From the IMG/VR virus record IMGVR_UViG_3300035701_000011, positions 33,146 to 97,145 of that record: a stretch of DNA of 64,000 nt; one strand, written 5' to 3'. The DNA comes from a virus. The position numbers and the translations under genes were made by a program. Positions 8,823 through 53,374 of the stretch are shown here, one piece after another. The notes beneath the pieces are model-generated. The model was given only the letters and a program-made list of their open reading frames with translations, was not told the origin of the DNA and made no database searches. Position 1 is the stretch's first letter. Every line of letters begins with the position of its first letter.

Positions 8823-10435
8823 TAGCCAAAATTAAAGAAAACGATTTAAAAGCATTTCAGGTCTTATCTCATCCGATAAGTGCGTCTCAAATTCTTTTCC
8901 ATGATTTTGATTCATTAGGAACGTGGGATAAAGAAAAATTTGGACATATTCGTGTTTATCAGTATCCTATGATGTCATTTGATAGTTTATTTTTATATGA
9001 TAAGAAATTATCTAAAGAAAAGAATTGGGAAATTAAAAATAATTTAGCTGAAAATTATAATCTTGGGGGGAGACTTACTGGAAAATCAGCAATTTCTATT
9101 CTTATAGATTCTATAGTTGGCACTTTTAATAAAGTTTATACTTGGACTGTAATTAGTTCCTATGATAAGTTACATCTACAAGAAATCTTTGAAAAAATGA
9201 TTAATTGTTTTGAAAATCATAAAATAATGAGAATTTTAAATGTACATCCGTTAAGAAGTCCTACTTTTAAATTAAATTTTGCAAACGGATGTTTATTAGA
9301 AAGTGTAAATATGAATATTGCCAGCAAAAATCCAGGTGGTCAATTCTTTGGTAAACATTTTGGAAGACACTATATGGAAGAATCTTCGTATTTAACTAAA
9401 GAAGTTTCTGGAAAAATGCTTATGGCACAATCAGAACAAGGTTGTATAAATCGTTTTTCTGGTATGACTACATTTACAAAAACATCTCCAGTAGGCGAAA
9501 TATTTTTTGATTTAAAAAACAAAAAAAAGATTATTAATCTTCCTTCCTATATTAATCCTACTTGGAATGATAAAAAAGAAGCAGATGCTATAAAAGAATT
9601 TGGTGGTAAGGATTCTCCTGGTTATCAAGTACAGATTGATGGTAAGGTTATTGAAGGTGCCGAAAGTGTTTTTGATATTCAAAGAATTAGGCAAACTTAT
9701 TTAGTAGATAAAAAAGGCAATCCTATTTCTATTAAAGCATTTGAAGTAAATAAAGATAGTTTTTTTAGATATAAAGAAATTGTTATTGTTGAGAAACCTG
9801 TTAATGCTGAATTTTTAGGAATCTATGCAGACATTGGCGAGGGTGGGGCAGCATCTGAATATATTATTATTTCAAAAACAAATCAAATTTATAGATATAT
9901 ATATCGTATCACTACATTTCAATTATCACCCGAAGAAGAAAAAGAATTTCTCGGATATTTAATTAGTCTTTTACTACCTAATATTATAGGGTTGGATAAT
10001 ACTTCTGGAGTAGGCAAGGCATTGATAAGTGCATTAAGAAAAGATTATCCTGATAATGTTATTCCCGTTTCGTTTAATGAAAACATTCAAATTGGATTAG
10101 CCAGAGATAAAGATGGAAAATTTATTACAGATAAATCAGGGCAGATTGTATATGAAGAAGCCAATATGGTAGATTGGAGTATGCAGAGATTAAAAGATAT
10201 TTTCTATAGTAAAAAAATACAGATGTTGGAAGATATAAAATTCGATACAGAAATTAATAATGTTATTGTTGGAAGAACAAAACAAGGTAAGGTCATGTAT
10301 GGTTATAAAGTGGCTAACCATTTATTTCAAGCCTTTCAAGTATTTGCAATTTGTGATTGGTTAAAAGAGGGTTTACCTAATTTAAAACCCATTAAAAAAC
10401 GTCGCCCTGGGTTTGGGAGTTTCGGAAATGCATAA
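8819..10435 (+). CDS. terL: Terminase large subunit
   Basis: RVYQ, Walker A GGRLTGKS, Walker B-like YMEES, motif III GMT, nuclease ADIG and GLDNTSGVG. Confidence 0.7.
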   Translation: MIAKIKENDLKAFQVLSHPISASQILFHDFDSLGTWDKEKFGHIRVYQYPMMSFDSLFLYDKKLSKEKNWEIKNNLAENYNLGGRLTGKSAISILIDSIVGTFNKVYTWTVISSYDKLHLQEIFEKMINCFENHKIMRILNVHPLRSPTFKLNFANGCLLESVNMNIASKNPGGQFFGKHFGRHYMEESSYLTKEVSGKMLMAQSEQGCINRFSGMTTFTKTSPVGEIFFDLKNKKKIINLPSYINPTWNDKKEADAIKEFGGKDSPGYQVQIDGKVIEGAESVFDIQRIRQTYLVDKKGNPISIKAFEVNKDSFFRYKEIVIVEKPVNAEFLGIYADIGEGGAASEYIIISKTNQIYRYIYRITTFQLSPEEEKEFLGYLISLLLPNIIGLDNTSGVGKALISALRKDYPDNVIPVSFNENIQIGLARDKDGKFITDKSGQIVYEEANMVDWSMQRLKDIFYSKKIQMLEDIKFDTEINNVIVGRTKQGKVMYGYKVANHLFQAFQVFAICDWLKEGLPNLKPIKKRRPGFGSFGNA

Positions 10436-11075
10436 ATTAAAAGTATGTTCAAAATGTAAAAAAGAATTGAATATTAATAATTTTACAATAGATAATAGAG
10501 CTAAAGATAAATTATTAGGTTATTGTAAACAATGTGTTAAAGATTATCAAATTTTACATAAAAAAGAAAGAAAGATATATTTGGAAAATAATAAACAAAA
10601 ATTTATTTGTTACAGGAAAAAATATTATCAAATAAATAAAGAAAAAGCAAAACAATATTATCAGGAACATAAAATAGAAGTTATTCAAAAACATAAAAAT
10701 TATTATGAAAAAAACAAAGAAAAAATTTTATATCGTATTAAAATTTATCAAAATAAAAAAATAAAAATAGATATTAATTTCCGATTAGCTGCTTATCTAA
10801 GAACAAGAATTTGGCATGCTCTTAAAGGCAATCCTAAATTATCTACAACTATGAAATTGGTAGGATGTAATATTAAACAATTAAAACATCATCTTGAAAA
10901 ACAATTTATTAAAGGAATGACGTGGAAAAATTATGGTAAGTGGGAAATAGACCACATAAGACCTTGTGCTTCTTTTGACCTTAGCAAACCAAGTGAACAG
11001 AAGAAATGTTTTTATTATAAGAATCTTCAGCCTTTATGGAAAGAAATAAATAGACGTAAACAAGGAAAAATATAA
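10428..11075 (+). mobile_element. Free-standing HNH homing endonuclease (family A), between terL and polB
   Basis: N-terminal CSKC...CKQC, Lys/Tyr helical repeats, WEIDHIRPCASFDL...NLQPLW. Confidence 0.85.
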
Positions 11076-13144
11076 TGTTATCATTTGGAGTAACAAATAT
11101 TGCCAATGTTGGTCGGGAGATATATGTCTGGTATCGCATAGACAAGACTCTATCTTGTTTTAAGGATTCTACTTTTCGACCTTACTTTTATCAGATTTCT
11201 CCAAATGGTATTTACAAAACAATTGATGGCAAAAAAGTAGAAAAAATAATATGTAGTAGACCTTCAGATGTTAAGAATCGCAGAGACGAAGGAAGTTATG
11301 AAGCTGATATACTTTTCACGAAACGATATATAATAGATAAGATTACTAATTTTAATAAAATAGACCTACATTGGTCTTTTATAGACATTGAAGTACTTTG
11401 TAAAGAACTTCCTAATTATCTCAACCCATCTCAGCCTATCTCTTGTATTTCATGTTCTAATTCTTATACTGGGGAAATTAAGACTTTCTTTTTATTAGAT
11501 TATTATGATTCTGTAAAATCAGATGTTCCTCTTGCAGAGAATAAAGATTGGATTGAAATTGCAGAGGAAGAATTATTAAATGATTTTGTAAAATGGACAA
11601 AAGAACAACAATTTGATTTGGTATTGGGATGGAATTTTATTGAATTTGATTGGCTTTATCTTTGTGCTAGATATAAGAAAATATTTAGTTGTGAATTAGC
11701 AGAAATGTTAAGTCCAATAGCACAATCAAAATATTTAGGAAGTTCTCAAAAAGTGGAACCTACATTAATTCCTGCTGGATTAAGTGTATGCGATTATTTT
11801 GATATGTATAAAAAGATTTATCGCACAGAACCATCTTATGCTTTAGATATAATTGCTCAAAAGCGTTTAAATGAACAAAGTTTTAAAAAGGTAGATTTTA
11901 GTAGATTAATTCCAGAAATAAAGGAAAAGAATATAAATGATGTTAAAAGAATGATAGATATTGAAAAGAAATTAAAAATAATTGAATACTATGATGAACT
12001 TAGGCGAATGTCTATGTGTGAATGGAGTGATGTTACCTGGAATTCTAAAATGATAGATATGATTCTTCTTAGAGAAGCTAAACAAAAAGGAATAATACTT
12101 CCCTCTAAACATTACGGTGAAGGATTAGAAGTCGATGAAATCGGATTTGAAGGAGCCTATAGAAGATGTGATACTGGTCTTTATAAAGGTCTTTGGAAAC
12201 TTGACCTTTCCTCTGCTTATCCAATGGCAATAATTAATTTCTGCCTGGATATTTCAAACATTAAAAATGAAGGAATTACCATAAACATGGTAAAGTTTTA
12301 CCAGAATGAAAATGCTCTTCTTCCCACAATAGCCAGAAAATTAATTAGTAAGAAAGATATTTTAAAAGCACAATTAAAATCTTTAAATCCAGAAACTGAA
12401 GAAGCCAAAGATTTACAAATTAAATATGATGCAATTAAAGCGGTTGTTAATTCTCTTTTTGGAGTGTGCGGACTAAAGATTTTTAGATTGTTTGATTATA
12501 GAGTTGCTGCAAGTATTACATTTTTAATTAGAGATTTATTGCATTATGTAGAAGATAAATTAATAGAAAAAGGAATGAAAGTAATTTATATAGATACAGA
12601 TTCATTTTTTATAGATGCAAAAGAAAATCCTAAAGATTTATGTAATGAACTAGTCAAACAATGGGCAAAAGAAAAATATAACAAGGATAAGATTGGTATC
12701 GAATTTGATTTAGAAGGTAAGTTTGATAAGATTTTTATAATTGCTCTGTGCCATTATAAAGGATATTTAAATACACCAAGGGGTGTAAAAGAAGAAATAA
12801 AAGGTATAGAGGCTCGTAGGAAGGATAGTTCTAATTTTATTAGAGAATTCCAGACTAATCTTATTGAAAAAATAATGAATGAAAAGCCACAAGAAGAAAT
12901 AATTAAATGGATTAATTTAGAAAAAGAACGAATTAAAACATTACCCCTGCAAGATATTGGATTTCCTGCAAGATTAACAAAACAAGATGGAGAGTACAAA
13001 ACTATAGTAACAAATGCTAAAGGAACAACTTATAATAGAAAGTTACCAATTCATATCCAAGCAAAAAATAATAGCAAAAAAATATTTGGAAAATTTGATA
13101 AGCAATTGGGTGATAATTATTGGTGGATTTATTATGTGGACTAA
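11075..13144 (+). CDS. polB: Family B DNA polymerase, large N-terminal fragment
   Basis: Exonuclease DIE and GWN...FD; polymerase DLSSAYP, KAVVNSLFG, YIDTDS, KGIEARRKD; ends inside the thumb (WWIYYVD*). Confidence 0.92.
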   Translation: MLSFGVTNIANVGREIYVWYRIDKTLSCFKDSTFRPYFYQISPNGIYKTIDGKKVEKIICSRPSDVKNRRDEGSYEADILFTKRYIIDKITNFNKIDLHWSFIDIEVLCKELPNYLNPSQPISCISCSNSYTGEIKTFFLLDYYDSVKSDVPLAENKDWIEIAEEELLNDFVKWTKEQQFDLVLGWNFIEFDWLYLCARYKKIFSCELAEMLSPIAQSKYLGSSQKVEPTLIPAGLSVCDYFDMYKKIYRTEPSYALDIIAQKRLNEQSFKKVDFSRLIPEIKEKNINDVKRMIDIEKKLKIIEYYDELRRMSMCEWSDVTWNSKMIDMILLREAKQKGIILPSKHYGEGLEVDEIGFEGAYRRCDTGLYKGLWKLDLSSAYPMAIINFCLDISNIKNEGITINMVKFYQNENALLPTIARKLISKKDILKAQLKSLNPETEEAKDLQIKYDAIKAVVNSLFGVCGLKIFRLFDYRVAASITFLIRDLLHYVEDKLIEKGMKVIYIDTDSFFIDAKENPKDLCNELVKQWAKEKYNKDKIGIEFDLEGKFDKIFIIALCHYKGYLNTPRGVKEEIKGIEARRKDSSNFIREFQTNLIEKIMNEKPQEEIIKWINLEKERIKTLPLQDIGFPARLTKQDGEYKTIVTNAKGTTYNRKLPIHIQAKNNSKKIFGKFDKQLGDNYWWIYYVD

Positions 13145-13679
13145 AGAAGATTGGAAACAATACGCAAAAGAATATTATCAATTATATAAGAAAAAAATTC
13201 TTTTAATTCGAAAAATTTATAATAAAATTCATAAAAAAGAAATTGCTTTATATAAAAAAGAGTATGACCAACTAAATAAAGAAAAAATAAGTTTACAAAG
13301 AAAAAAGTATTATCAAGACCATAAAAAAGAAACCATCGAACAAGATAATGTTTACAAATATAATAGGTACCATAGAGATATTAATTTTAGAATACGAATT
13401 TGTCTTAGACAAAGATTGCGAAAAGTATTAAAAAAAATTCATAAATCTACTTCCATATTGAAATTAATTGGTTGTTCTTTAAAAGAATTAAAACAACATT
13501 TAGAATCACAGTTTTTAAAAAATATGTCGTGGTCTAACTATGGATTGTGGCACATAGACCATATTAAACCTTGTGCTTCATTTGATTTGCGAAAAAAGTC
13601 AGAACAACGCAAATGTTTCCATTATACTAACTTACAACCTCTGTGGGCAGTTGATAATTTAAAAAAAGGAGCAAAATAA
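13134..13679 (+). mobile_element. HNH homing endonuclease (family A) inserted in polB
   Basis: ATG at 13134 overlaps the polB end; WHIDHIKPCASFDL...NLQPLW; TAATG overlap with the next ORF. Confidence 0.88.
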
Positions 13680-13867
13680 TGATTCCAATTGCTTTTGATG
13701 AAAATACTATAGATTTATTAGATAAAACAAAAATTGCTTGGACTAAAATGATAGAAAGAAGTATAATTTCAAAGGTTGAACATATTTTTTTAGCATTAAA
13801 ATGGGATTTATCACTTATTAAGGAAATTAAACCTAAAAAAGAAAGAAAAAAGAAATGCATTATATAG
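13679..13867 (+). CDS. polB: Family B DNA polymerase, C-terminal thumb fragment
   Basis: IAFDE...IAWTKMIERSI..KVEHIFLALKW resembles the PolB C-terminal pattern that is missing from the upstream ORF. Confidence 0.7.
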   Translation: MIPIAFDENTIDLLDKTKIAWTKMIERSIISKVEHIFLALKWDLSLIKEIKPKKERKKKCII

Positions 13868-17545: not shown

Positions 17546-18197
17546 TTGTTAGTTAATTATTGTGATTTATGTGGGCAACCACTAAAAGAAAATAATTTTC
17601 ATTCTTTATATTGTTCTTCTCCTGATATAAATGCTCCTGACCCAAATAAATACGAAGAAATGGATAAATATTATAAAGATTATGCTCGTTATTTACTTCA
17701 AGTACAAAAAGAAGTAAAAGAAATTTGTCCTACATGCAAATATGTTTATGATAAAATTTTTGAATATAGATTACAAGGATTAAGTAAGATGACAGAAGAA
17801 TGTGCAAATTTATTTAATTTACCTTCAAAAAAGAATCCAAAGGAGAGAGGAAATGGCAAAGAAAAAAAGTAAAGAAAAATCTAATTGCTGCCATGCAAAA
17901 GTAAGAGTAAGTGGTATAGGAGATTTTGAAGGTGATAAAATTGCATGTACACTATATTATATTTGTACAAAATGTAATCAACCTTGTGATGTTTATATTC
18001 CTATAAGAAGGACTTGGAATATTAATCCTGTTACTAAAGTTAAAGGAGATAGTCGTGGAAAAGAAAAAGAAAAACTTACAAAAAAGGAAATCGAAGAATT
18101 TAGACGTAACGAAGATTTTTAAATTATTCGGAGAACAACCACAACGAACTTGTTCTTACGATGGTCATCCCCATTACGATAATTGGAGATAATGATA

Positions 18198-19226
18198 ATG
18201 AATAATGTTTTAATCTATTCTGATTTGCATATCAATCAATCCTCCCTAAAAGAATGTATAACAATCCTTGAAGAAATAGGTATGCTTACTAATAAGTATA
18301 ATATTGATACACTTATTAATTTAGGTGATACATTCGATGGTCTAAAACCAAGTAGTCAAGAGTTAGATGTTTTTGCAACTTTTATTAAAAGATTAGGAAA
18401 TGATAAAAAACATATTATCCTGGCTGCGGACAGCCATGAAAGTACCACGCAAGAAGAATCAATTTTAAATCATTATGGAATTCTTTCTGATAATGTGCAA
18501 ATTGTCAAAGAATATAAAGATGGTAATCATCTTTATTGTGGACATTTTAGTATTAAGGAATCTATTGTAAATTATGGAGCCAAACTTTCTAAAGAAGATT
18601 TAAAAAATTATATATATGTTTTTCTTGGACACATTCACAGTTATCAAGTTATAAAGCCTAACATTTGTCATTTAGGAAGTTGTAGATATGTTGATTTTGA
18701 TGAGGCAAAAGATGAGTATAAAGTCATAACCATTATTAGCGATTATAAAACAGAACAGGAAGAAGTTCATTTTATGAAGTTAAAAAGTCCTATCCCAATG
18801 ATTCAATTAGAGTTAGGTAAAAATAACCCAAAAGAGGCGATTTTAGACACGATTTCGGACCAAAACAAAGGTATAGAGAAAGATACTCTGGAACCTAAAT
18901 CGAGGCAAATTGCCTGTATAAACCCCCTAAATTCCTATAGTTTTGAGGCAGTATGTCAATTTTTAGATAAAGCAGACCACAAGACTAAAGTTAAGGTTAA
19001 AATCCTCGATTTTGAATCTTTCCGCCAATTCCTTCCCTTATGTAGTAAATACAATACAAAATTTGAGACATTTAAGTATGAAACTGATTTTACAATCATT
19101 TCGGTAGATAATCAAAATTGTAAAGATACTGCAATAGTTAGTTTTAAAGAAGCATTTATTAATTGGCTCAATAATCAGAAAATAGATGATAAGATTAGAG
19201 AAATCCTACAAAAAGAGATAGAATAA
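18198..19226 (+). CDS. sbcD: SbcD/Mre11-like metallophosphoesterase nuclease
   Basis: SDLH, LGDTFD, SHE, GH, GHIH; lies upstream of an SbcC-like gene. Confidence 0.8.
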   Translation: MNNVLIYSDLHINQSSLKECITILEEIGMLTNKYNIDTLINLGDTFDGLKPSSQELDVFATFIKRLGNDKKHIILAADSHESTTQEESILNHYGILSDNVQIVKEYKDGNHLYCGHFSIKESIVNYGAKLSKEDLKNYIYVFLGHIHSYQVIKPNICHLGSCRYVDFDEAKDEYKVITIISDYKTEQEEVHFMKLKSPIPMIQLELGKNNPKEAILDTISDQNKGIEKDTLEPKSRQIACINPLNSYSFEAVCQFLDKADHKTKVKVKILDFESFRQFLPLCSKYNTKFETFKYETDFTIISVDNQNCKDTAIVSFKEAFINWLNNQKIDDKIREILQKEIE

Positions 19227-19404
19227 TGATAGAACACAGAGTTTGGTGGGAAGAAATAGAAAGATGTAAAGGAAAAAATAAAAATGGTTCTCCTTGTCAT
19301 TTACCAACTCGTAGGGGATTTGAAATTAGTCCTGGAAATTTATTTGTTCCTTTAACTTGTTGGAGACATCAAGAACAAGAAAATAAATTAAGGCAAATCA
19401 AAAC

Positions 19405-20184
19405 ATGATAATTAAATCCTTAAAGATTAATAATCTACAACTTATCAAATCAGCTCAGGTTAATTTTGATAAGATTAATATTATTTCTGGAATAAATAAA
19501 GATAATCCTTCCGAAAGTGGTAATGGGTCTGGTAAGTCTACTTTTGTTTTGCGTGCCATTTTATTTTGTCTCTACGGGTATTGCGAGGAAGGTCTAACCC
19601 TCAAAGATTTAATTCGCTTTGAAGAAAAAGAATGTTCAGTTACTTGTGAAATAACCAATAACAATGAACATTACAGAATAATAAGAAAAATACCTAGTGA
19701 ATTACAACTTTTCCTTAATGATAAGGAAATTCAAGCAAATACCGCAACTATTAAACAAAATTTAATAAACGAATATTTTGGTGATGTTAGTTTTTTCAGA
19801 CAATATAGATGTGTTGATTTAAAGAATGGAATAAATGTTTTAGATATGGGTATTGTATCTCTTCGCAAGACATTAATGAGTTTTATAGAAGGTATCTTTA
19901 CTGAAATAAGAACTCGATTATTGGCACAAAAAGTAGAAAGAGAAAGGTATTCAATTGATAAAAAATTATTCAAAAATTTCCTCTCAGAGAAGCGATTAAA
20001 TATCTTAAATGCTTCATTAATTGAAGCAAAAACTGATTATCAACGATTTGAAAAAGAAAGAGATATACAACAAAATATTATTAATAAAATCAAATCAGAA
20101 ATACAATCAAGAGAACAAATTATCTATTATAAAAAATCAGAATTAGAAAAATTAAAAAAAGGACAATGTCCTATAATAAAATGA
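19405..20184 (+). CDS. sbcC: SbcC/Rad50-like ATPase, N-terminal half
   Basis: IKSLKINN, Walker A GNGSGKS, coiled coil, ends GQCPIIK*. Confidence 0.85.
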   Translation: MIIKSLKINNLQLIKSAQVNFDKINIISGINKDNPSESGNGSGKSTFVLRAILFCLYGYCEEGLTLKDLIRFEEKECSVTCEITNNNEHYRIIRKIPSELQLFLNDKEIQANTATIKQNLINEYFGDVSFFRQYRCVDLKNGINVLDMGIVSLRKTLMSFIEGIFTEIRTRLLAQKVERERYSIDKKLFKNFLSEKRLNILNASLIEAKTDYQRFEKERDIQQNIINKIKSEIQSREQIIYYKKSELEKLKKGQCPIIK

Positions 20185-20852
20185 ACAAATGTATAATTTG
20201 TAAAGAAAAATTTCAACCAAATAGTAATAATCAAAAATGTTGTTCAATTGACTGTTATAAAATTCATAAGAACAACTATCAAATAATTTATCGCAGTAAC
20301 AGGAACCAAGAAAAGAAAATGATTTGTTTGATTTGTAAAAATGAATTTATTAAGATTGGTAATCAAATATGTTGCAGTAAAAAATGTTCTACTATTAATA
20401 AAAAAGAGAAACATATAATTTATCGATTAAATCATAAAAAAGTAAAAGAAATTTATGATAATAATTATCGGCAAATTCATAGAATAGCAATAAATGAATC
20501 ACATAAAAAACGTTTTGAATCTGATATTAATTTTAGAATAATGTGTAATTTAAGAAGTAGATTACTTTCAGCAATTAGGGGTAATCCAAAATTAGAAACT
20601 ACTACAAAATTAGTTGGATGTAGTATAGATAAATTTAAGAAACATCTTGAAAAACAGTTCAAAATAGGGATGAATTGGAATAATTGGGGTAGGGGTTGGA
20701 GTGGAATGGGCATGAAAGAATGGCATATAGACCATATTATTCCTTGTTGTCAATTTGATTTAACGAAAAAATTGGAACAAAAGAAGTGTTTTCATTATAC
20801 TAATCTTCAACCTCTGTGGGCAATAGAAAACATGCAAAAAAGGAAAAAATAA
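20181..20852 (+). mobile_element. HNH homing endonuclease (family A) inserted in sbcC
   Basis: Two CxxC...CS..C Zn modules; WHIDHIIPCCQFDL...NLQPLW; ATGA and TAATG overlaps. Confidence 0.88.
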
Positions 20853-21544
20853 TGGAATGTCCTATTCTAAAAGAAAAATATAACCTAATATATAAAGAAA
20901 AAGAGCAAGAAATTTTAAAATTAAATGAAGAGATTAACGATTATAAGAAACAATTAGAATTAGAACAAGATTCTATTTCTTATTATAATGATATGTTGGA
21001 ATCAATTCGCAATAAAGAAGAAAAAGTACGACAAAAATTAACACAATTAAAGTCTGCATTTCAATTTGCTGATTATAAATATACTAAAGCCGACATCGTA
21101 ATCTATGATGAAGCGGTAAAAATTTTAGATACATTTGCTGGTGAATATATAAAGGAATGGTTATCTTCTCTTTCAGTAATTATAAATAACCTTCTTCAAC
21201 CTATAAATATTTCAGTAGAGTTTACTGCGGATAAAGATTTTTTACATGTTTATGATAATGAACAAATGTTAAAGTATGACCAATTATCGAAAGGTCAGAA
21301 GACATTTTTGGGGTGTTTATTTAAATTTGCTATCTTAATGCAGCAAAATAAATCGGGGATAGTGATTTTAGACGATGGACTCAATGATATTGATTGGATT
21401 AATTTTAAAAATTTAATAAATATAATTAAAACTCTTCCCTTTCAAGCAATCTGTGTGTATCAGGGATTGCAAGAAAAAATAGAAGATACAAAACATTTTT
21501 TAGTTATAAGAGAAAAAGGAATTTCAAATGTTAAAACTGAATAA
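20852..21544 (+). CDS. sbcC: SbcC/Rad50-like ATPase, C-terminal half
   Basis: Starts MECPILK; coiled coil; ABC signature LSKGQK; Walker B VILDD. Confidence 0.85.
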   Translation: MECPILKEKYNLIYKEKEQEILKLNEEINDYKKQLELEQDSISYYNDMLESIRNKEEKVRQKLTQLKSAFQFADYKYTKADIVIYDEAVKILDTFAGEYIKEWLSSLSVIINNLLQPINISVEFTADKDFLHVYDNEQMLKYDQLSKGQKTFLGCLFKFAILMQQNKSGIVILDDGLNDIDWINFKNLINIIKTLPFQAICVYQGLQEKIEDTKHFLVIREKGISNVKTE

Positions 21545-21799
21545 GAAAAAACATTTTAATTGTAAAAATTGTATCTGCCAAGAAAAGGTAAAATTTCAGA
21601 ACAATGTATTATTTTGTTTTGGATTAATTAAAAAAACTTATTATAAAGAAGACCACTATCGTTTTTGTATAATTAAAGGAAAAAAACGTTCAGCAAATGA
21701 TATAATGTTAGAAGAACTTCATAGTATGTTAATGGGATTGTCAAGGATTCTTTTTCAAAAAAGATTAGAAGAAGTAAATAAAGATAGGAGATTAAAAAA

Positions 21800-22954
21800 A
21801 TGAATACTATTCAAATTAATAAGCCAGGGAATTCTACTATGGTATTAGTTATGGCTCCTACAGGAGCCTATTACGAAGATGATAAATATAAAGGTATATC
21901 TCATTTTTTAGAACATATGTGTTTTAAGGGAACTAAAAAAAGAACCAGAGAAGAAATAAATTCTACAATAGAAAATGTAGGTGGTGATATTAATGCTTTT
22001 ACTGATTGGGAAGTTACTGCTTATTGGGCAAGAGTTGGAAATGCCTACAAAAAAATAGCATTTGATATTATTGAAGATTTAGTTACTAATCCTATTATTC
22101 CTGATAAAGAAGTAGATAAAGAAAGAGAAGTAATTATACAAGAATTAAAAATGGGCGTGGATGATGCCAAAGGATATACTTGGGATTTATTTCATTCTGC
22201 TCTTTATGAAAAAAAATCTGGATTTCATATATCAATTATAGGAACCAAAGAATCTCTTTATAGAATTAAACAAGAGGATTTGGAAAAATATCACAATCAA
22301 TATTATAAATCAAATAATTTAACTAAAATAATCGTGGGTGATGTTCCCAATATTGAAAAATTTCAAATGAAATCCTACAATATAAAAGAAAATTTTGTGA
22401 ATAAAAATCCTAAAGATAAATTAGTTACTCGCAAAGATATGACTCAAGCAAATATTATTATAGGAAATAGTACAAAACCTTTTGTATCTACTCAAGAAGG
22501 AGAAATTTTAAATTGGTTATTATCTTCTCTCTATAATGATATGAGTGGTAGATTGTTTTCTGTTATTAGAGAACAAAATCATTTAGTTTATAGAATAAGA
22601 TTTGGAATTGATTATAATAGAAATAGAGAAATGACTTGGAGTGTTTCTCTGGGATTAGATAAGAAGAATATTGAAAAAGCAAGAAAATTAATTGTTCAAG
22701 AATTAATCAGACCTGCTACAAAAAAAGAAATTGAAACTATCATAAATAAAACTATAGGTACTTTAGATTTATATTTGGATGATAATATTCATATAGCAAA
22801 TCAAATCGCTTATTTTGTTACTCGTAATATTGATTATAAATTCTTTATTTATGACTACAAAAAATATATAAAGCAAACTGCAAATTTAATTAATGATTAT
22901 ATTCAAGATTTACATTTTGAAAAAAATGTATTAGCTGGAGTAGTAGGAGAATAG
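21800..22954 (+). CDS. M16-family zinc peptidase
   Basis: GISHFLEHMCFKGT (HxxEH), NAFT, EREVIIQE, RLF..IRE...LVY. Confidence 0.9.
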   Translation: MNTIQINKPGNSTMVLVMAPTGAYYEDDKYKGISHFLEHMCFKGTKKRTREEINSTIENVGGDINAFTDWEVTAYWARVGNAYKKIAFDIIEDLVTNPIIPDKEVDKEREVIIQELKMGVDDAKGYTWDLFHSALYEKKSGFHISIIGTKESLYRIKQEDLEKYHNQYYKSNNLTKIIVGDVPNIEKFQMKSYNIKENFVNKNPKDKLVTRKDMTQANIIIGNSTKPFVSTQEGEILNWLLSSLYNDMSGRLFSVIREQNHLVYRIRFGIDYNRNREMTWSVSLGLDKKNIEKARKLIVQELIRPATKKEIETIINKTIGTLDLYLDDNIHIANQIAYFVTRNIDYKFFIYDYKKYIKQTANLINDYIQDLHFEKNVLAGVVGE

Positions 22955-23389
22955 ATGATTAAATATTTTATATTTACCTTAATTTTAGCCATTATAACTG
23001 CTCTATGGGAGATTCAGGCTGAAGGACATGATGGTTGGGCTAGGAATTTACCTACTTTCCGCATCAATGTATTCTTTAAAAAGTTATTAGGTGGTAAAAG
23101 TTTGACTGGTTATCATATCTTTTTATTACTCTTATTTATAACAGTATTTCATGGATTATTTATTAATGAATTAGGAACTTGGAAAATAGAATGTACTATT
23201 ATTGGACTAGTATCTTGGTTTTTTGTAATAGAAGATGCATTGTGGTTTATTTTTAATCCTCATTATACATTAAAAAAATTCTGTAAAGGAAAGATAGATT
23301 GGCATCGCAGATGGTTCTGTAAATTACCGATTACTTATTGGTGGGGAATGATTATAGGTACTTTATTATTAATTTTAGGAGGAAAATAA
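22955..23389 (+). CDS. Integral membrane protein
   Basis: About four hydrophobic segments. Confidence 0.65.
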   Translation: MIKYFIFTLILAIITALWEIQAEGHDGWARNLPTFRINVFFKKLLGGKSLTGYHIFLLLLFITVFHGLFINELGTWKIECTIIGLVSWFFVIEDALWFIFNPHYTLKKFCKGKIDWHRRWFCKLPITYWWGMIIGTLLLILGGK

Positions 23390-23390
23390 A

Positions 23391-23510
23391 ATGTATTATT
23401 GTAATGATTGTGATATTGCACATGAAGAAAGAAATTGCCCTCTTTGTGAAGCAAAAAAAGAAATTAAACAACTAGAACAAGAAATAGAAAGATTAAATAA
23501 TTTAGAATAA
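23391..23510 (+). CDS. 39-aa Zn-finger/coiled-coil peptide (paralog of 4413-4532)
   Basis: MYYCNDCDIAHEERNCPLCEAKKEIKQLEQEIERLNNLE; AGGAGG RBS. Confidence 0.7.
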   Translation: MYYCNDCDIAHEERNCPLCEAKKEIKQLEQEIERLNNLE

Positions 23511-23514
23511 TAAA

Positions 23515-24102
23515 ATGCCATATAAAAATAAAAAAGTTAGAACTAAATACCATAAAATATATTATTCGAAGCATAAAGATAAAATTTTAAGAATTGCAAA
23601 AAAATACATAAAATTACATAAAATAAAAGTTTCTATTTATCAAAAAAATTATCGCAAGAAGCATAAAGAAAAAATTAAACAATATAATGAACAACATAAG
23701 AAAAAAATTAATTTACAGATGAGAAAATGGAGAAAAGAAAATAGAAAAAAGATAACTCATTATATCAGGCAACGTAGAAATAATAATTTAGATATTAAAT
23801 TAAAAGATTATTTAAGAAATAGATTATATCAAACTTTAAAAGGACTTTATAAATCTAAATCAATTTTAAAATTACTCGGTTGCTCTATTAATTTTTTAAA
23901 AAATCATTTAGAAAAATTATTTGCTAAAGGTATGAATTGGCAAAACTATGGTAAGTGGCATATAGACCACATCAAGCCTTGTGCTTCATTTGACTTGAGC
24001 AAACCCGAAGAGCAACGTAAGTGCTTTCATTATAAAAATCTTCAGCCCTTATGGGCGAAAGAAAATTATATTAAACACGATAACATTATAAAAGAGGAAT
24101 AG
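23515..24102 (+). mobile_element. Free-standing HNH homing endonuclease (family A)
   Basis: WHIDHIKPCASFDL...NLQPLWAKEN. Confidence 0.88.
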
Positions 24103-24729
24103 ATGCTCAAAGATAAATTTCAAAATATTGAAGAATTTGATTTATATATAAAAGAACAATTGGATAGACAAGTTAAAGGATATTTGACTTATACAGAAAG
24201 AAAACAATTAAAAATATTATCGGATAAGAATTATAAACCTATTTTTACAAAAGAAGAAAAACCTAAACTTCCTATAGTTACTGATATAAATGAATTAAAA
24301 AAACCTTGCCAAGAAGTAACTAAGGAAGATAACATTTCCGAAATAATCCAAAAACTTAAAGATACCTTAGAAAGTAGAGGTGGGCTTGGAATTTCAGTCA
24401 ATCAAGTAGAAATTAAAAAAAGAATCTCTTATATAAAAATCCCTAAATTCACCAAAGATAAAAGAATAGAATTTAATGAATATATCTTGATTAATGCTAA
24501 AATAATAGAAAAAGATAAACCTATTAAGGTTAAAAATGAAGGATGTTTGTCTTTCCCTGGAGTTTATGTAGATACATTAAGATATGTATTTTGTACAGTA
24601 CAATTTTTAAATGAAAAAATGGAACAACAAACTGGAACGTTTCAAGATTTAGAGAGTCTTGTGGTACAACACGAATGTTCGCATCAAGAAGGTAAAACCA
24701 TTTTCGATTATAAATGGAGAAATAAATGA
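24103..24729 (+). CDS. def: Peptide deformylase
   Basis: GLGISVNQ, EGCLS, QHECSH. Confidence 0.88.
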   Translation: MLKDKFQNIEEFDLYIKEQLDRQVKGYLTYTERKQLKILSDKNYKPIFTKEEKPKLPIVTDINELKKPCQEVTKEDNISEIIQKLKDTLESRGGLGISVNQVEIKKRISYIKIPKFTKDKRIEFNEYILINAKIIEKDKPIKVKNEGCLSFPGVYVDTLRYVFCTVQFLNEKMEQQTGTFQDLESLVVQHECSHQEGKTIFDYKWRNK

Positions 24730-27178: not shown

Positions 27179-28792
27179 ATGACACTTGGTGTGGCTATAA
27201 TAGTTAAAAATGAAGAAAAAGTAATTGAACGAGCTTTATCTTCTTGCAAAGATATAATTGATAAAATCATTATATGTGATACTGGGTCTACAGATTCTAC
27301 TATTGAAAAGATTAGAAATTTTGCAGAAATTAATCATATACAATATGAAATTCATTCAAGAGAATGGAAAAATTTTAGTTGGAATCGTACAGAATTATTA
27401 AAAATTGCTAAAGATAAAACCGATTATTTATTATTACTTGATGCAGATGAAATAGTTGTTATTTCTAAAGATTTTAATAAAGAAAAACTTAATGCCGATG
27501 CCTATTATTTACATTATATAGGTGAATTAGATTATGCTCAACTTCTTTTGATTAACAACAGAATTAATTGGAATTATATAGGAGTAACTCATGAATATAT
27601 AGAATCAAAAGAAGCCAATACTTATATAGATTTGAAAGAAATTAAAATGCAAGATTTTTGTGATGGAACAAATCGTAAAGATAAATTTACAAGAGATATA
27701 CAGTTATTACAACAAGGAATTATAGATGAACCAAGCAATAGTCGTTATCATTTCTATTTAGGACAAAGTTATAAAGATTTAAAAAAATATGAAGAAGCCA
27801 TAAATTATTATTTAAAAACTATAAAATTAAGTTATTGGGTTAAAGAAATTTTTTATTCAAAATATCAAATTGGTAGATGCTTTGAAAATTTAGGAAAGAC
27901 CGATGAAGCAAAAATTGCTTATTTAAAAGCATGGGAATTTAGACCTGGAAGAGCAGAACCATTATATCGTTTAGCAGTTTTATGCCGAAATAATAAAGAG
28001 TATTATCAGGCTTATTTATTTTGTAAAAGAGCATTAGAAATTTCTTATCCTACAGACCATTTATTTTTGGAGAAATCAATATATGATTATTTATTAATAT
28101 TCGAATTGAGTATAAATGCATATTATGTAGGTCGTTATACAGAATCCTTAGAACTTTGCAAAAAATTAATGAAAATGGAAAATATTCCCGAATCAATTCT
28201 AATGCAGAACAGAATTAATATCCAATTCAGCGAATTAAAATTATATGGTAGTATTCTTACTTCTACTTTTGATAGAGAATCTGCTTTAGAAAATTTAAAA
28301 GATGTTTATAATATTTGTAATAAGTTAAATATTCCTGTTTTTCCAAATGCAGGAACTTTATTAGGAATTATTCGAGAAGGAGATTTTATCAGTCATGATG
28401 AAGATATAGATTTTGGAATAGAAATAAATAATTATTCTCCTCAATTAATAAAAGAATTAGAAAATAATGGATTTAAATTTGAACATACTTTTGGAACCGT
28501 AGAATTAGGTTATGAATTAAGATTTACAAAAAGAGGAATACAAACTGAATTTTCTTTATTTTATAATAAAAAAGATTATATTTGTACCTATTGTTATAGT
28601 GATGATGGCAAAATTTATGAATTAAAATATAAAAAATTTAAATTAGAAAAGTTTAATTTTAAAAATATAAAAATTAAAGTACCGAATAATCCCGAAGAAT
28701 ATTTAAGACAACAATATGGAGATGATTGGAGAGTTCCAAAAAAAGATTGGAATTATCTGACTGACCCCAAAAATATAATATTGGAGAAATAA
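27179..28792 (+). CDS. GT2 glycosyltransferase-TPR-LicD fusion
   Basis: IVKNEE, DTGSTD, LDADE, THE; TPR helices; LicD motifs GTLLGIIRE..FI.HD.DID and YL...YG.DW..P. Confidence 0.85.
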   Translation: MTLGVAIIVKNEEKVIERALSSCKDIIDKIIICDTGSTDSTIEKIRNFAEINHIQYEIHSREWKNFSWNRTELLKIAKDKTDYLLLLDADEIVVISKDFNKEKLNADAYYLHYIGELDYAQLLLINNRINWNYIGVTHEYIESKEANTYIDLKEIKMQDFCDGTNRKDKFTRDIQLLQQGIIDEPSNSRYHFYLGQSYKDLKKYEEAINYYLKTIKLSYWVKEIFYSKYQIGRCFENLGKTDEAKIAYLKAWEFRPGRAEPLYRLAVLCRNNKEYYQAYLFCKRALEISYPTDHLFLEKSIYDYLLIFELSINAYYVGRYTESLELCKKLMKMENIPESILMQNRINIQFSELKLYGSILTSTFDRESALENLKDVYNICNKLNIPVFPNAGTLLGIIREGDFISHDEDIDFGIEINNYSPQLIKELENNGFKFEHTFGTVELGYELRFTKRGIQTEFSLFYNKKDYICTYCYSDDGKIYELKYKKFKLEKFNFKNIKIKVPNNPEEYLRQQYGDDWRVPKKDWNYLTDPKNIILEK

Positions 28793-32682: not shown

Positions 32683-35130
32683 ATGGAAACAAATCCTAAT
32701 TCAAAAAAATGGTTAAAAATAATAGACCAATATGGTTGGGCATATTATTTTACTACCAAAGAGCAACAACGTTATTCTTATCATCAATTAGATTTAATGT
32801 CTTTTTTTGAATTCGAAGATATTCTAAATCAAATCCCAAAAATTGATTATGAAGTAATATATTATTCTGACCCTGCTATTTGGTATGATAAAGAAAAAAA
32901 GCAAATAGAAAATTTACGTAAAAATTTTCCAAAAATTAAAATTATAGGAGCAATTTCTGGAAATACTACAAATTATAAATATGATAATGTAGATTTAATT
33001 GTTCCTATCTCCTATAAAGATATAAATAATTTAAAATTAATTTATCCTAACATTCCTATAATTTTCTTACCTGAAAGTGTAGATACTAATTATTTTATCC
33101 CAAAAAATCAATATAATAATTTTATAGTAGGCTGGGCTGGTAGATTGTCTGCCCCAGATAAACGATGCCATCTATTAGATAAATTAAAATATACTGTGGA
33201 AAAACAAGCCGAACATAATGATAAAGACTTAATTAATGGTCGGTCTCTAGAACCTATGTTAAAATTTTATCACAAATTAGAATGTTTAATTTTATTGAGT
33301 AAACATGAATGTATGCCTAGAGTCGTTATGGAAGCAATGAGTTGTGGATTGCCTGTAATAGCAACAGATTGTGGGTCTATTAGATTATTATTAGATAAAG
33401 AATGGATTATTTCTAATAATCTAACTGATGAAGAAATTATAAAACAATGTAATAAAAAATTAGATATGCTAGCAAATAATTCTGTACTTCGGAAAAAAGT
33501 AGGAAAAAGAAATAGATTACATATAGAAAAATATTTTAGTTGGAAAATTAATCAACCTATGTGGGATAGAGTAATTAATTCCCTATATAATAATGATATG
33601 AAAGATATTCAAAAAGTTCATCAATATTATATGAATTTATTTCAGCCTATGTGGGAAAAAGATAAATTAGACATTTTAAAAATTATTGATGAATATGGAT
33701 GGGCATATCATTTTGTCAATCAAGAACAAATAAGATATACTAAACATAATCTTAGTTATCAAACTATTGAAGAAAGTAGTACTCTTACTACCGTACCTGA
33801 TTATGATATTATTTATTTCCACAGTTCAAATATGTATAGTTCTTGGGAAGATAAATTGATTATTAAATTACAAAAAGAAAATCCTTATACAAAAATTATA
33901 GGGGCTTATGGTGGAGAAACAGAACAAATATATCAAGACTGTGATATTGTTGTTTCTATTTCGTTAAAATATATGGAATTTTTGAAAAAAGAATATCCAA
34001 ATAAACCTGTTATCTTTCTCCCCGAATCGGTAGATACTAATTATTTCAAACCAAATAATATTTTAAATCGGTGTATTTTTGGTTGGGCTGGTAGATTATC
34101 TTCAGTCAAAAGACATCATTTATTAGATAAATTAAAATATCCTATTATAAAAAAATCCGATTGGGATAAGAAATTTTTTGTAAAAGAAAGAACTCTAGAA
34201 CCAATGAAAGATTTTTATAAAAGTATAGATGTATTTGTCCTAACTAGTCAATCCGAATGTATGCCCAGAGTAGTTTTAGAGGCTATGGCTTGTGGATTAC
34301 CTATAATATCTACCGATGTAGGGTCATTGAAACTCATAATAGAAGATGAGTGGTTAATTTTTAATACAGAGGATGAAAAAAATGTAATTGCAGAAATAAA
34401 TAAACGAATGGAAATATTAAATAAATATCCCGAAATTAGAAAACGAGTTGGAGAAAGAAATCGGAAATTTATAGAAGAACATTTCAGTTGGAAGATAACC
34501 CAACCATTATGGGATTCTGTTTTTAAATTAATTTATAATGGAGATTATAAAGGATGTGTAAATATAACAAATAAATTTTTATTAGATTTAGACGATTCTG
34601 TAACTTCTCATTTAGGCAGAGAAGCAATTGATATTCCAATAACTTCCAATCATATTAAAATTAAACTAGAAAAAATTAATTCTATACCTGTAGCAAAACC
34701 AATTATTCCTTTAAAGATTATTAAAGAAGAAAAGCAAGAAACCTTATTAGAAAAAATGTTTAAACCAAAACCTAAAATAGAAAATATAACTAAAGAAGAA
34801 CGATATAGAACCTTTTTTAAAGAACTTAATTCTAATGATATAAAATATTGGTTAATAAAAAATAGTTGTTTAGAACGGATTGTTTTAAGAGAATTAAAAA
34901 CTGAACTTCTCAATTTAGGTACCTGTGATATTAATAATCAAAATAAAATTAATTTAATTGCCGAACAATTTAAAATTCCTGTAGAAATAACTATAGAAAA
35001 CAGGAAAATTAAAGAATTTTCTATTTATGGAGAAACTATTTTTGTTCCGATACCTGTTGTAGAATATTTATATCGTATTTTTGGAAAAGATAATTTAATT
35101 AAAAAATATGGAGAAGAATGGATAAAATGA
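32683..35130 (+). CDS. Tandem GT4 glycosyltransferase with a degenerate LicD-like C-terminus
   Basis: Two copies of KIID.YGWAY / LPESVDTNYF / GWAGRLS / ECMPRVV.EAM.CGLP. Confidence 0.85.
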   Translation: METNPNSKKWLKIIDQYGWAYYFTTKEQQRYSYHQLDLMSFFEFEDILNQIPKIDYEVIYYSDPAIWYDKEKKQIENLRKNFPKIKIIGAISGNTTNYKYDNVDLIVPISYKDINNLKLIYPNIPIIFLPESVDTNYFIPKNQYNNFIVGWAGRLSAPDKRCHLLDKLKYTVEKQAEHNDKDLINGRSLEPMLKFYHKLECLILLSKHECMPRVVMEAMSCGLPVIATDCGSIRLLLDKEWIISNNLTDEEIIKQCNKKLDMLANNSVLRKKVGKRNRLHIEKYFSWKINQPMWDRVINSLYNNDMKDIQKVHQYYMNLFQPMWEKDKLDILKIIDEYGWAYHFVNQEQIRYTKHNLSYQTIEESSTLTTVPDYDIIYFHSSNMYSSWEDKLIIKLQKENPYTKIIGAYGGETEQIYQDCDIVVSISLKYMEFLKKEYPNKPVIFLPESVDTNYFKPNNILNRCIFGWAGRLSSVKRHHLLDKLKYPIIKKSDWDKKFFVKERTLEPMKDFYKSIDVFVLTSQSECMPRVVLEAMACGLPIISTDVGSLKLIIEDEWLIFNTEDEKNVIAEINKRMEILNKYPEIRKRVGERNRKFIEEHFSWKITQPLWDSVFKLIYNGDYKGCVNITNKFLLDLDDSVTSHLGREAIDIPITSNHIKIKLEKINSIPVAKPIIPLKIIKEEKQETLLEKMFKPKPKIENITKEERYRTFFKELNSNDIKYWLIKNSCLERIVLRELKTELLNLGTCDINNQNKINLIAEQFKIPVEITIENRKIKEFSIYGETIFVPIPVVEYLYRIFGKDNLIKKYGEEWIK

Positions 35131-43569: not shown

Positions 43570-44145
43570 TTATTCTCCTAAAATCTTGTCGTTCTTACTT
43601 AAGTTATCAAACGCCCATAAAGGTTGAAGATTAGTATAGTGAAAACATTTACGTTGCTCTTTAACTTTACTTAAATCAAACGAAACACATGGTCTAATAT
43701 GGTCAATATGCCAAAGACCATAATTATTCCAGGTCATACCTAATTGAAACTTAGATTGTAAATGATTCTTTAATTGTTCTACATTGCACCCTAATAATCT
43801 CATGGTAGATTCTGATTTGGAGATTCCTTTTAATACTTTATAAATTCTAATTCTTAAATTAACAATAATTTTATTTTTTATTTTTCTATAGTATTTTAGA
43901 TTATAAGAAATTCTTTTTTCTCGATTATTATAATAATTTTTTTTAGCCCATTCTCTTGCTTTTTCATAATTATCATAATAATACTTCAAACTATAATCAT
44001 TTACTTCTTTTTTATGAGATTCTCTATATTTTTTCTTATATTGTTTAATTTCTTCAGCATGTTCTTTTCTGTATTCAGAATTTCTTTTATTTAATTCATC
44101 TTTATGTTTTTGATAATATATTTTTCTATATTCTTTTATATCCAT
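43570..44145 (-). mobile_element. Free-standing HNH homing endonuclease (family A)
   Basis: WHIDHIRPCVSFDL...NLQPLW; start MDIKEY at 44145. Confidence 0.88.
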
Positions 44146-44146
44146 T

Positions 44147-44602
44147 TTAATCACCGATAATCCAATTACCTTGTTCATCTATGATAAGTATTATTTTCTG
44201 ATTTTTTCCATCTTTAAGCCATTGTAAACCCAAATGATATTCTATTGTATGAGATTTTTCTTTTAAATCTTGGGTTCCTATTTCTACTTTATGCCTACGG
44301 AAGAATACTAATCTACAATTTTCTTTTTTTTGTTCTGTTTCTATATAAGGAAATTCTAATCTATTATAACCAATAAGTCCGTTTGTTAAGTTTACACTAA
44401 ACATCTTACCATTGTTATTTGTTAAATTAAAATAAACTAAATCATTAAATTTTTCTTGTACTTCTCTGAATTGATGCTCTATACCGTTTTTGTCAAATTG
44501 AAAAATATGAGTACCATCTTTGAAAATTGCGTTCCAATAAAAAGATAGCGAATTCATTGAATTGTTTCCGCCATTAATATTTATGTCCATTGTATTGTCC
44601 AT
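44147..44602 (-). CDS. Hypothetical tail-module protein
   Basis: ORF and context. Confidence 0.55.
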   Translation of the reverse strand: MDNTMDININGGNNSMNSLSFYWNAIFKDGTHIFQFDKNGIEHQFREVQEKFNDLVYFNLTNNNGKMFSVNLTNGLIGYNRLEFPYIETEQKKENCRLVFFRRHKVEIGTQDLKEKSHTIEYHLGLQWLKDGKNQKIILIIDEQGNWIIGD

Positions 44603-52822: not shown

Positions 52823-53374
52823 TTACTTTATCTTTTGTTTAGGTTTGCTTAAATTATCTTTTGCCCATAAGGGTTGAAGATTTGTATAACGGAAACATTT
52901 CTTCTGTTCACTTGGTTTACTAAGGTCAAAAGAAGCACAGGGTTTTATATGGTCTACATGCCATTTACCATAATTAGACCAAGTCATACCAGATTGAAAC
53001 TTAGATTGTAAATATTCTTTTAATCGTTCCACAGAACAACCGACTAATTTCATAGTAGTAGATGATTTGGGATTATTTTTTAATACCAAATATAATCTAG
53101 TTCTTAAATTGCATAAAATTTTAAAATTTATATTTGTAGACCTTTTAATTCTATAATATTTAGTTATTTTATTAAGTATAGATTTTTTATTTTTTAGATA
53201 GTATTTTTTCTTTTTAGCCAAAATTTGTTCTCTGTGAGTTTCATAATATTTTTTATCAACTTTAACACATTTTACTTTATTTATTTTTACATATTCTTTT
53301 CTTTGCAACAAAAGTTTAATTCTATTTTTTAAATAATAAGCCTTCTGATATTCTTGTTTATTAAATTTTTTCAT
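52823..53374 (-). mobile_element. Free-standing HNH homing endonuclease (family A)
   Basis: WHVDHIKPCASFDLSKPSEQKKCF...NLQPLW. Confidence 0.88.

Follow-up and report, generated by a model that had tools for sequence, protein, structure and literature searches.

A phage SbcC/Rad50 gene interrupted at its zinc-hook apex by a free-standing HNH-like endonuclease gene

The DNA analyzed here is a stretch of 64,000 nucleotides (nt), positions 33,146 to 97,145 of IMG/VR virus record IMGVR_UViG_3300035701_000011, and is referred to below as the window; the whole record is 97,145 bp long with about 27% G+C and carries direct terminal repeats. At 19405–21544 of the window, an SbcC/Rad50-type ATPase gene adjoining an SbcD/Mre11-type nuclease gene is interrupted at its coiled-coil apex by a free-standing nuclease gene, as had been described in an earlier reading made from the letters alone (the sequence-only reading). 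The arrangement is likely the result of the insertion of an HNH-like homing-endonuclease cassette, which would have made a two-piece SbcC that is still under selection. Alignment with uninterrupted relatives indicates that the two hook cysteines were not separated by the insertion; the first Cys, together with the Pro that follows it, is doubled, and the second is lost (Cys to Tyr).

The interrupted gene and its intact relatives

The N-terminal piece of SbcC (N-half; 19405–20184, plus strand, 259 residues) contains Walker A and the ascending coiled coil and ends with GQCPIIK followed by TGA. The inserted gene (20181–20852, plus strand, 223 residues) is a free-standing HNH-like (His-Me finger) endonuclease gene; its ATG at 20181 overlaps the N-half stop (ATGA), with an alternative ATG at 20166, and its TAA stop at 20850–20852 overlaps the ATG of the C-terminal piece at 20852 (TAATG). 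The C-terminal piece (C-half; 20852–21544, plus strand, 230 residues, stop at 21542–21544) starts MECPILKEKY and encodes the descending coiled coil; a GTG at 20816, further upstream, is a less likely start. Within the 3′ end of the nuclease open reading frame (ORF), a Shine-Dalgarno (SD)-like AAGGA on the plus strand (20840–20844) lies 7 nt ahead of the C-half ATG. Comparable SD sites precede 61 of the 88 long ORFs of the genome, versus 6.4% of random positions, and the nuclease ORF, unlike the C-half, has no SD site of its own in this survey.

The N-half, nuclease, and C-half ORFs occupy three different reading frames, which makes an in-frame intein impossible, and Rfam returned neither an intron nor any other RNA family over 18000–24500. 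With overlapping ORFs, three frames, and no Rfam hit, the absence of both intron and intein claimed by the sequence-only reading is upheld, and all its statements on ORF ends, overlaps, motifs, and the repeat at the junctions were verified. No plus-strand terminator-like site was found at the split locus. A split intein was also considered and rejected: the N-half stops five residues into the hook motif and the C-half starts two residues before it, which leaves no room for intein parts, and three frames are used.

The Walker A motif GNGSGKST is encoded at 19519–19542 in the N-half, with G43 and K44 invariant in 46 aligned sequences. The signature LSKGQ (21284–21298) and the Walker B motif IVILDD (21359–21376) are encoded in the C-half, and S146, G148, Q149, and D174 of this piece are invariant in the alignment. 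The Pfam model SMC_N (PF02463) gives 16.2 and 27.2 bits for the two halves, neither of which reaches its 40-bit cut-off; the uninterrupted homologues are annotated with PF02463 in a precomputed annotation. In tblastn searches of named phages, the first 126 residues of the N-half alone matched SbcC-like genes of Herelleviridae, Bacillus phages, and others at about 37% identity, and the C-half found no match. Throughout the close clade, intact members included, Gln stands where distant relatives have the H-loop His (VYQ versus ILH); as catalytic residues of an ATPase of the Rad50 type, this Gln and the Asp-Asp of Walker B appear unusual.

Eighty-nine longer relatives of the N-half were found, 85 of which are single chains of 478–525 residues; three have a longer coiled coil and comprise 684–690 residues. 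Along its entire length the N-half shares up to 81% identity with residues 1–259 of uninterrupted 486-residue proteins, and these relatives continue past this region into sequence that aligns with the window C-half. Eleven related metagenome and virus loci have a single uninterrupted sbcC ORF in the same gene order, and the hook is split in none of the at least 15 loci from the metagenome scan. The HNH-free relatives carry one ORF rather than two, in line with the interruption of a once continuous gene proposed by the sequence-only reading. Viral contig scans queried with the N-half, the nuclease, or P0096 (a further split N-terminal piece described below) gave no matches; a scan queried with P0091, another such piece, found intact-hook alleles and no others, and a scan of prokaryote genomes gave no matches.

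The intact relatives also define the ancestral hook. In the short-coil clade the hook reads C-P-[IV]-L-x-x-x-C, or C-P-x5-C, in 81 of the 89 full-length relatives; the remaining eight, the three long-coil forms among them, have CxxC at the corresponding place. Two apex cysteines are present in all 89. The ancestral hook in this alignment is C-P-x5-C, not CxxC or the canonical CPEC considered in the sequence-only reading.

Hook junctions in three split lineages

At the junctions, the N-half stops five residues into the hook motif (C-P-I-I-K, stop), and the C-half starts the same motif again two residues after its own first codon (M-E-C-P-I-L-K). The position of the second hook Cys, at least 90% conserved in 41 intact relatives, is occupied by Tyr in the C-half (codon at 20879–20881, plus strand), and the linker is about eight residues shorter than in intact proteins. 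Tyr is found at this position in the window and in one other protein, P0113, only. The statement that one Cys is left on each half is literally true, but the two hook cysteines of an N- plus C-half pair arose by duplication of the first Cys and loss of the second.

The 17-nt repeat reported at the two junctions is real. Copy 1 (20165–20181, plus strand) and copy 2 (20856–20872, plus strand) are identical at 15 of 17 positions; by chance, 0.09 occurrences of the pattern would be expected in the window. Judged purely as a match between flanks, it stands out only modestly in DNA of 27% GC, 23 of 500 random window pairs scoring equally high; the repeat carries weight because of its position and the hook peptide it encodes. 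Each copy, in its own frame, encodes a peptide with the hook Cys-Pro (CPIIK at 20167–20181 and CPILK at 20858–20872) that aligns to C-P-[IV]-L-K of the uninterrupted relatives, and the second copy with its surroundings is close to the intact hook-coding DNA of these relatives. A small hairpin (AGGAC-AAT-GTCCT, −5.1 kcal/mol; 20160–20172, plus strand) lies just 5′ of the nuclease gene. It arises from a Gln codon particular to the window allele and spans an SD-like AGGA and the upstream ATG of the nuclease, so that it could damp nuclease expression.

Two further proteins show the same derived junction. P0091 (260 residues, 68% identical to the N-half) ends GECPVIKE, and P0113 (228 residues, 60% identical to the C-half) starts MKCPLLQNKY; the longest contig is 50,609 nt for both, and the intact protein P0041 is the nearest protein to both. 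The derived features held in common with the window are Cys-Pro on both ends, the Leu-to-Ile change in the N-half copy, the Cys-to-Tyr change, and the shorter linker. A third split lineage is represented by P0096 (266 residues, 51% identical), which ends GYCPILENENE and for which no C-terminal partner was found. Two other samples also contain near-identical copies of the window C-half.

When a tree was made from the N part with its last 12 residues removed, the hook-split alleles were spread over three clades, each with its own support and each placing the split allele amid intact ones, and the split label requires three changes; P0091 is sister to the intact P0041 with an SH-aLRT support of 98. 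Identity to the nearest intact kin drops abruptly at the junction, from 80–84% to 40% for the window N-half and from 79% to 27% for P0091. In P0113 it is 33% at the junction versus 91% elsewhere, and near-identity with P0041 resumes beyond. We take this collapse to mean that the nuclease gene homed into different intact alleles together with short imported flanks, the same conclusion to which a derived junction common to a distant split allele points when the gene bodies lie in different clades. Judged from these comparisons, horizontal spread of the cassette is moderately favored over convergence.

The sbcCD locus of this phage group bears other interruptions as well. Three C-terminal SbcC pieces of 211–256 residues (P0112, P0119, and P0120) start about 16–22 residues ahead of an intact two-Cys hook or just past the hook; they could represent further apex split sites, and some may be gene calls cut at the ends of short contigs. 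In other relatives, at L021:4194–6188 and L022:137–1396, the same sbcC gene is split elsewhere, after about residue 98. The N piece there ends YKIIRKIEL and is followed by a 179-residue ORF with a Pfam HNH domain (E 6.7e-7). The C piece (392 residues, P0098) starts MKTTLKICVDNQEIQ, and its first ~35 residues are far more diverged from intact kin than the remainder. At L014:3116–4731, and also in L024, L025, and L026, sbcC is intact and sbcD/Mre11 is split into pieces of 208 and 133 residues by a 195-residue Cys-rich ORF. With splits in both sbcD and sbcC, the sbcCD locus of the group has been hit by inserted genes at at least three sites. At L027:3977–6129, an intact sbcC is followed by an unrelated 221-residue Cys-rich ORF whose last 18 residues copy the SbcC C-terminus (14/18 identical to P0001), that is, an inserted gene with a duplicated piece of its target.

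A probable two-piece SbcC and competing explanations

Conservation was assessed at the columns at least 90% conserved among 41 intact proteins, 69 in the N part and 50 in the C part. The N-half keeps 68 of the 69, the exception being the hook Leu-to-Ile change common to P0091, and the C-half keeps 49 of the 50, the exception being the second-Cys-to-Tyr change common to P0113; intact proteins themselves depart at a median of 1–2 columns. Compared with seven intact alleles, the ratio of nonsynonymous to synonymous substitution rates (dN/dS) is 0.13–0.20 for the N-half and 0.12–0.23 for the C-half, versus 0.05–0.28 between intact alleles, all rough values because dS is near saturation. Relaxed selection on either half, which the sequence-only reading had named as a sign of decay, is not seen: conserved columns and dN/dS match those of intact alleles.

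The N-half and C-half were predicted to form a complex with an interface score (ipSAE) of 0.70 (0.70, 0.70, and 0.71 in the individual runs), and the best of three controls scored 0.00. Of 80 solved complexes, 58 attained the 0.70 mark, as did 2 of 110 mismatched pairs. At least 90% of contacts recur between runs, and the predicted local distance difference test (pLDDT) value of the partner is at least 77. In the model, residues 153–250 of the N-half and 10–107 of the C-half contact each other every 3–4 residues as an antiparallel coiled coil, and N-half residues 23–28 join C-half residues 198–216 in a joint head sheet. Heads and coiled coils of Rad50 and SMC proteins have already been solved, so the score shows likeness and is not proof that these copies bind. 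Assembly of the two halves is probable, and the model of two reassembling polypeptides put forward in the sequence-only reading fits all the evidence, this predicted heterodimer included.

The events may be pictured as follows. A free-standing HNH-like cassette would have entered the hook-coding apex of a phage sbcC, so that a gene about 486 codons long became three, closely packed and transcribed together. Ribosomes on the N-half would stop at the TGA that overlaps the nuclease ATG; the nuclease, having no ribosome-binding site, would probably be made at a low level by coupling, and the C-half would be initiated afresh from the AAGGA-7nt-ATG in the 3′ end of the nuclease gene. The SbcC polypeptides would then reassemble unjoined, their ascending and descending helices zipping into an antiparallel coiled coil and their two half-heads forming an ABC ATPase that works with the neighboring SbcD. 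The chain break would thereby fall at the single point of Rad50 where the halves are held together anyway. From such an allele the cassette could home into intact ones, bringing short flanks with it.

A more tentative proposal is that the two chain termini rebuild the zinc hook. The candidate site would consist of four chain ends, Cys255 of each N-half and Cys3 of each C-half, an arrangement that is somewhat less likely than not; it would replace the intact C-x6-C, with one zinc tying two N- plus C-half pairs, that is, four polypeptides. The mobile cassette itself would in that case bring the duplicated Cys-Pro as well as the signals that end and restart translation (stop, ribosome-binding site, and start codon). 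If this is true, the insertion was made harmless by a selfish element equipped with its own repair kit for a metal site.

Several points weigh against a selected two-piece SbcC spread by one homing cassette. The case is built from sequence comparison and predicted structure. The dS values are near saturation (0.8 to >2), and dN/dS also includes the time before the insertion. The terminal hook residues (251–259 of the N-half and 1–9 of the C-half) lie outside the confident contacts of the model, and Walker B is Asp-Asp, not Asp-Glu, throughout the close clade, intact members included. P0091, P0113, and P0096 were compared as proteins, and that P0091 and P0113 are neighbors is deduced from the same 50,609-nt contig figure and their complementary ends. 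Between the two split lineages the junction-proximal segments are 60% and 42% identical and the gene bodies 68% and 62%; the segments being no more alike than the bodies, a common origin of the cassette rests on the shared derived characters, not on overall similarity. The junction of P0096 resembles that of its own intact kin (67%), so P0096 may be an independent event.

It is also conceivable, though rather unlikely, that the two-piece SbcC works with a functionally dead hook, the Cys-Pro copies and the Cys-to-Tyr change being by-products of the insertion and no adaptation for retaining zinc. They could have come with flanks co-converted from a donor allele, as suggested by junction-proximal segments that are sharply unlike the nearest intact kin and look imported, or they could be target-site changes protecting the allele from its own nuclease. 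Because the second repeat copy is nearly identical to intact hook-coding sequence, changes just downstream of it, Cys to Tyr included, could confer immunity to cleavage. Duplicated gene ends do occur beside inserted genes elsewhere in the phage group, as in L027 with its 14/18 copy of the SbcC C-terminus, and the hook residues are not confidently placed in the predicted complex. A dead hook does not readily explain why two lineages with diverged flanking residues both keep Cys-Pro at each terminus, or why the N-half of a third lineage likewise ends just past Cys-Pro. Two cysteines per protomer are found in 89 of 89 intact members, and the split pair keeps exactly two; moreover, no flank duplication accompanies the other six nuclease paralogues of this genome, so the element does not leave one as a matter of course. 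Decay of the whole gene is much less credible. The second hook Cys, which looks essential, is lost and the gene is physically broken, as would be expected of a slowly decaying pseudogene in a phage that needs no SbcC of its own or uses the host enzyme. Both halves are nevertheless open and keep 68/69 and 49/50 conserved columns, with dN/dS the same as in intact alleles; the same split occurs in alleles 51–68% identical that are also open and conserved, the C-half has a proper SD site and ATG, and nearly identical C-halves are present in two other samples. A pseudogene is accordingly very improbable.

Rejoining of the halves is hardly tenable in any of the three forms offered by the sequence-only reading. 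Deletion or RNA-level removal of the 691 nt between the repeats is invited by a 15/17-nt direct repeat in register, and such a removal keeps the frame, as it must when the two copies specify one and the same peptide. The intervening DNA is a complete, conserved gene of 223 codons and not a spacer, Rfam finds no group I or II intron or other family, and the nucleotide repeat is not kept in P0091 and P0113 (GECPVIKE-stop and MKCPLLQNKY), whose ends share Cys-Pro only; neither a long repeat nor matched codons are conserved. Joining into a CPEC hook has no basis, because CPEC matches none of the 89 relatives, 81 of which have C-P-x5-C. Ribosomal bypass, with take-off at the AAA-stop and landing at the downstream AAA, could draw on the stop directly after the last AAA and the small hairpin nearby, yet matched take-off and landing codons are missing from P0091 and P0113, the C-half has start signals of its own (AAGGA-7nt-ATG), and the known bypass, in T4 gene 60, spans 50 nt and not 691 (bioRxiv 10.1101/2022.08.31.505936). 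A −1 slip on the A-run before the TGA, which would fuse the N-half to the nuclease, was set aside as well, four A's being commonplace at such a composition.

The inserted nuclease and known genes in pieces

The inserted nuclease has a double Cys4 module in its N-terminal part; its middle is helical, and the nuclease core is encoded at 20721–20840. Its C-terminal 100 residues carry the motifs WHIDH ... NLQPLW ... ENxxK, with H185, N208, and N217 invariant in 60 family members, in a predicted order of strand (181–185), helix, strand (209–213), and helix (214–220). The family is large, with 46,563 representative clusters at E ≤0.001. Among the 60 members, 49 match phrog_1035 'endonuclease VII' in PHROGs (best 6.9e-26) and seven match 'HNH endonuclease', and the homologues in named phages were labeled HNH endonuclease or endonuclease VII by their depositors. 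No sequence match was found in Pfam, NCBIfam, or PDB, and hhalign detected no similarity to the Pfam-positive HNH protein of L021. For the model of the nuclease domain (mean pLDDT 80), as for the whole model, Foldseek gave no match at E ≤0.001; its weak rows for the domain (E ≥1) consist largely of DNases (pyocins and colicins) and of HNH domains from Cas9. With VIA-align, the domain matched 33 chains at Z ≥2, most of them HNH nucleases, the best being Cap5 (Z 3.4, root-mean-square deviation (rmsd) 3.1, 66 aligned residues) and Gme HNH (Z 3.4, rmsd 3.7, 72 aligned); the whole model was uninformative, its matches being dominated by the long N-terminal helix. The combined motif, PHROG, and fold evidence supports, with moderate confidence, an HNH-like assignment. 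The label HNH in the sequence-only reading thus agrees with the motif, the PHROG families, and weak fold matches but not with any Pfam, NCBIfam, or PDB sequence match.

The 97-kb genome encodes seven paralogous HNH-like genes, the hook copy included, which are 42–54% identical. They lie at 10413–11075, 13014–13679, 20181–20852, 23515–24102, 43570–44178 (minus strand), and 52823–53374 (minus strand), and at 27231–27743 of G000, and most of them overlap or abut neighboring genes. The double Cys4 module and a 9-residue insertion ahead of the catalytic His are found in the hook copy only. Flank duplication as a general footprint of the nuclease family was rejected: the hook copy alone among the seven has a flank match, and a modest one. 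A family B DNA polymerase ORF (11075–13144; Pfam DNA_pol_B and exonuclease domain) lies between two of the paralogues, and the second of these, at 13014–13679, is followed by a 62-residue ORF (13679–13867).

Upstream of the split gene, an intact SbcD/Mre11-like metallophosphatase gene (18183–19226, plus strand) encodes 347 residues from its first TTG, the true start being probably a few codons further downstream. It matches Pfam Metallophos (23.9 bits, cut-off 21.5) and phrog_100 'SbcD-like subunit' (E 1.4e-7), and the order sbcD-sbcC is identical in all related loci. An ORF of 60 residues (19226–19408, plus strand) lies between sbcD and sbcC, a slot that holds a differing small gene from relative to relative. 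Altogether, five ORFs on the plus strand fill 18183–21544.

In canonical Rad50/SbcC proteins, such as Pyrococcus furiosus Rad50, T4 gp46, and E. coli SbcC, the zinc hook is a CxxC at the coiled-coil apex. The window protein resembles these in having Walker A in the N part and the signature and Walker B in the C part, a neighboring Mre11/SbcD gene, an antiparallel coiled coil (predicted here), and two apex cysteines with Pro after the first. The short-coil clade as a whole differs from canonical Rad50 in its C-P-x5-C hook, and the window protein differs further in that its chain is interrupted within the hook, with each of the two cysteines on a chain end of its own. In structural work on P. 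furiosus Rad50, the catalytic domain was reportedly obtained by expressing its N- and C-terminal segments separately. In that construct two polypeptides come together as head and coiled coil, as proposed for the window halves; unlike the window protein it was made in the laboratory, with the coiled coil and hook removed. The window allele is a natural counterpart of a designed experiment, in which the chain is broken at the hook and both Cys-bearing ends are kept. Should the two-piece protein prove active, the chain need not run unbroken through the apex, and the protein, with its short coiled coil and about 490 residues overall, would be a simple system for studying the contribution of the hook and its zinc.

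The splitting of nrdA of Aeromonas phage Aeh1 by the HNH gene mobE was reportedly described by Friedrich et al. in 2007. As in the window sbcC, a free-standing HNH-type gene sits in a conserved critical site of a phage DNA-metabolism gene with no intron or intein, and the upstream piece overlaps the start of the nuclease (Crona et al. 2011; PMC3045599). The Aeh1 polypeptides reassemble with the participation of insertion-derived terminal sequences (PMC3045599), to which the predicted assembly of the sbcC halves may be likened. The window case differs from Aeh1 nrdA in its host gene, SbcC/Rad50, in the position of the break at the apex of a coiled coil, and in the duplication of a metal-ligand motif at the termini; moreover, the sbcC halves would already be held by a long helical interface and so would need no new interaction tails.

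Aeh1 nrdA (ribonucleotide reductase; mobE), the T4 topoisomerase gene (mobA), and gene 43 (DNA polymerase) of Aeromonas phage 25 are endonuclease-split genes that yield active multi-piece enzymes (PMC2988022, PMC3045599). T4 gp39/gp60 (mobA) and phage 25 gene 43 (a seg gene) share with sbcC an endonuclease insertion and separately translated pieces; in both cases the pieces form an active enzyme, as those of sbcC may do (PMC2988022). The host genes differ, and T4 gene 60 has an additional 50-nt translational bypass of which the window sbcC shows no sign. The same repair system, SbcCD, is affected in a case noted by Dassa et al. (2009; PMC2677866), where a Vsr-like endonuclease has fractured an SbcD-like gene and no inteins are present; there too a free-standing endonuclease gene lies between the halves. 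In the fractured genes of that study, as in the window, the 3′ end of the endonuclease gene overlaps or abuts the downstream piece, and extra residues are present at the fracture (PMC2677866). Most of those genes contain split inteins that re-ligate the protein, whereas the window pieces extend only 5 and 2 residues past the hook motif; the nuclease family is another one, and the target is SbcC at the hook, not SbcD (PMC2677866).

Full-text searches of a library of papers found no report of an SbcC/Rad50 gene split by an endonuclease in this way. SbcC/Rad50 is a new host gene for the known genes-in-pieces phenomenon, and its notable feature, as far as the aligned sequences tell, is the duplicated hook Cys-Pro combined with the loss of the second Cys, common to a distant split allele. 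The same derived junction in unrelated gene backgrounds suggests that a homing cassette can carry host-gene fragments that neutralize its own damage.

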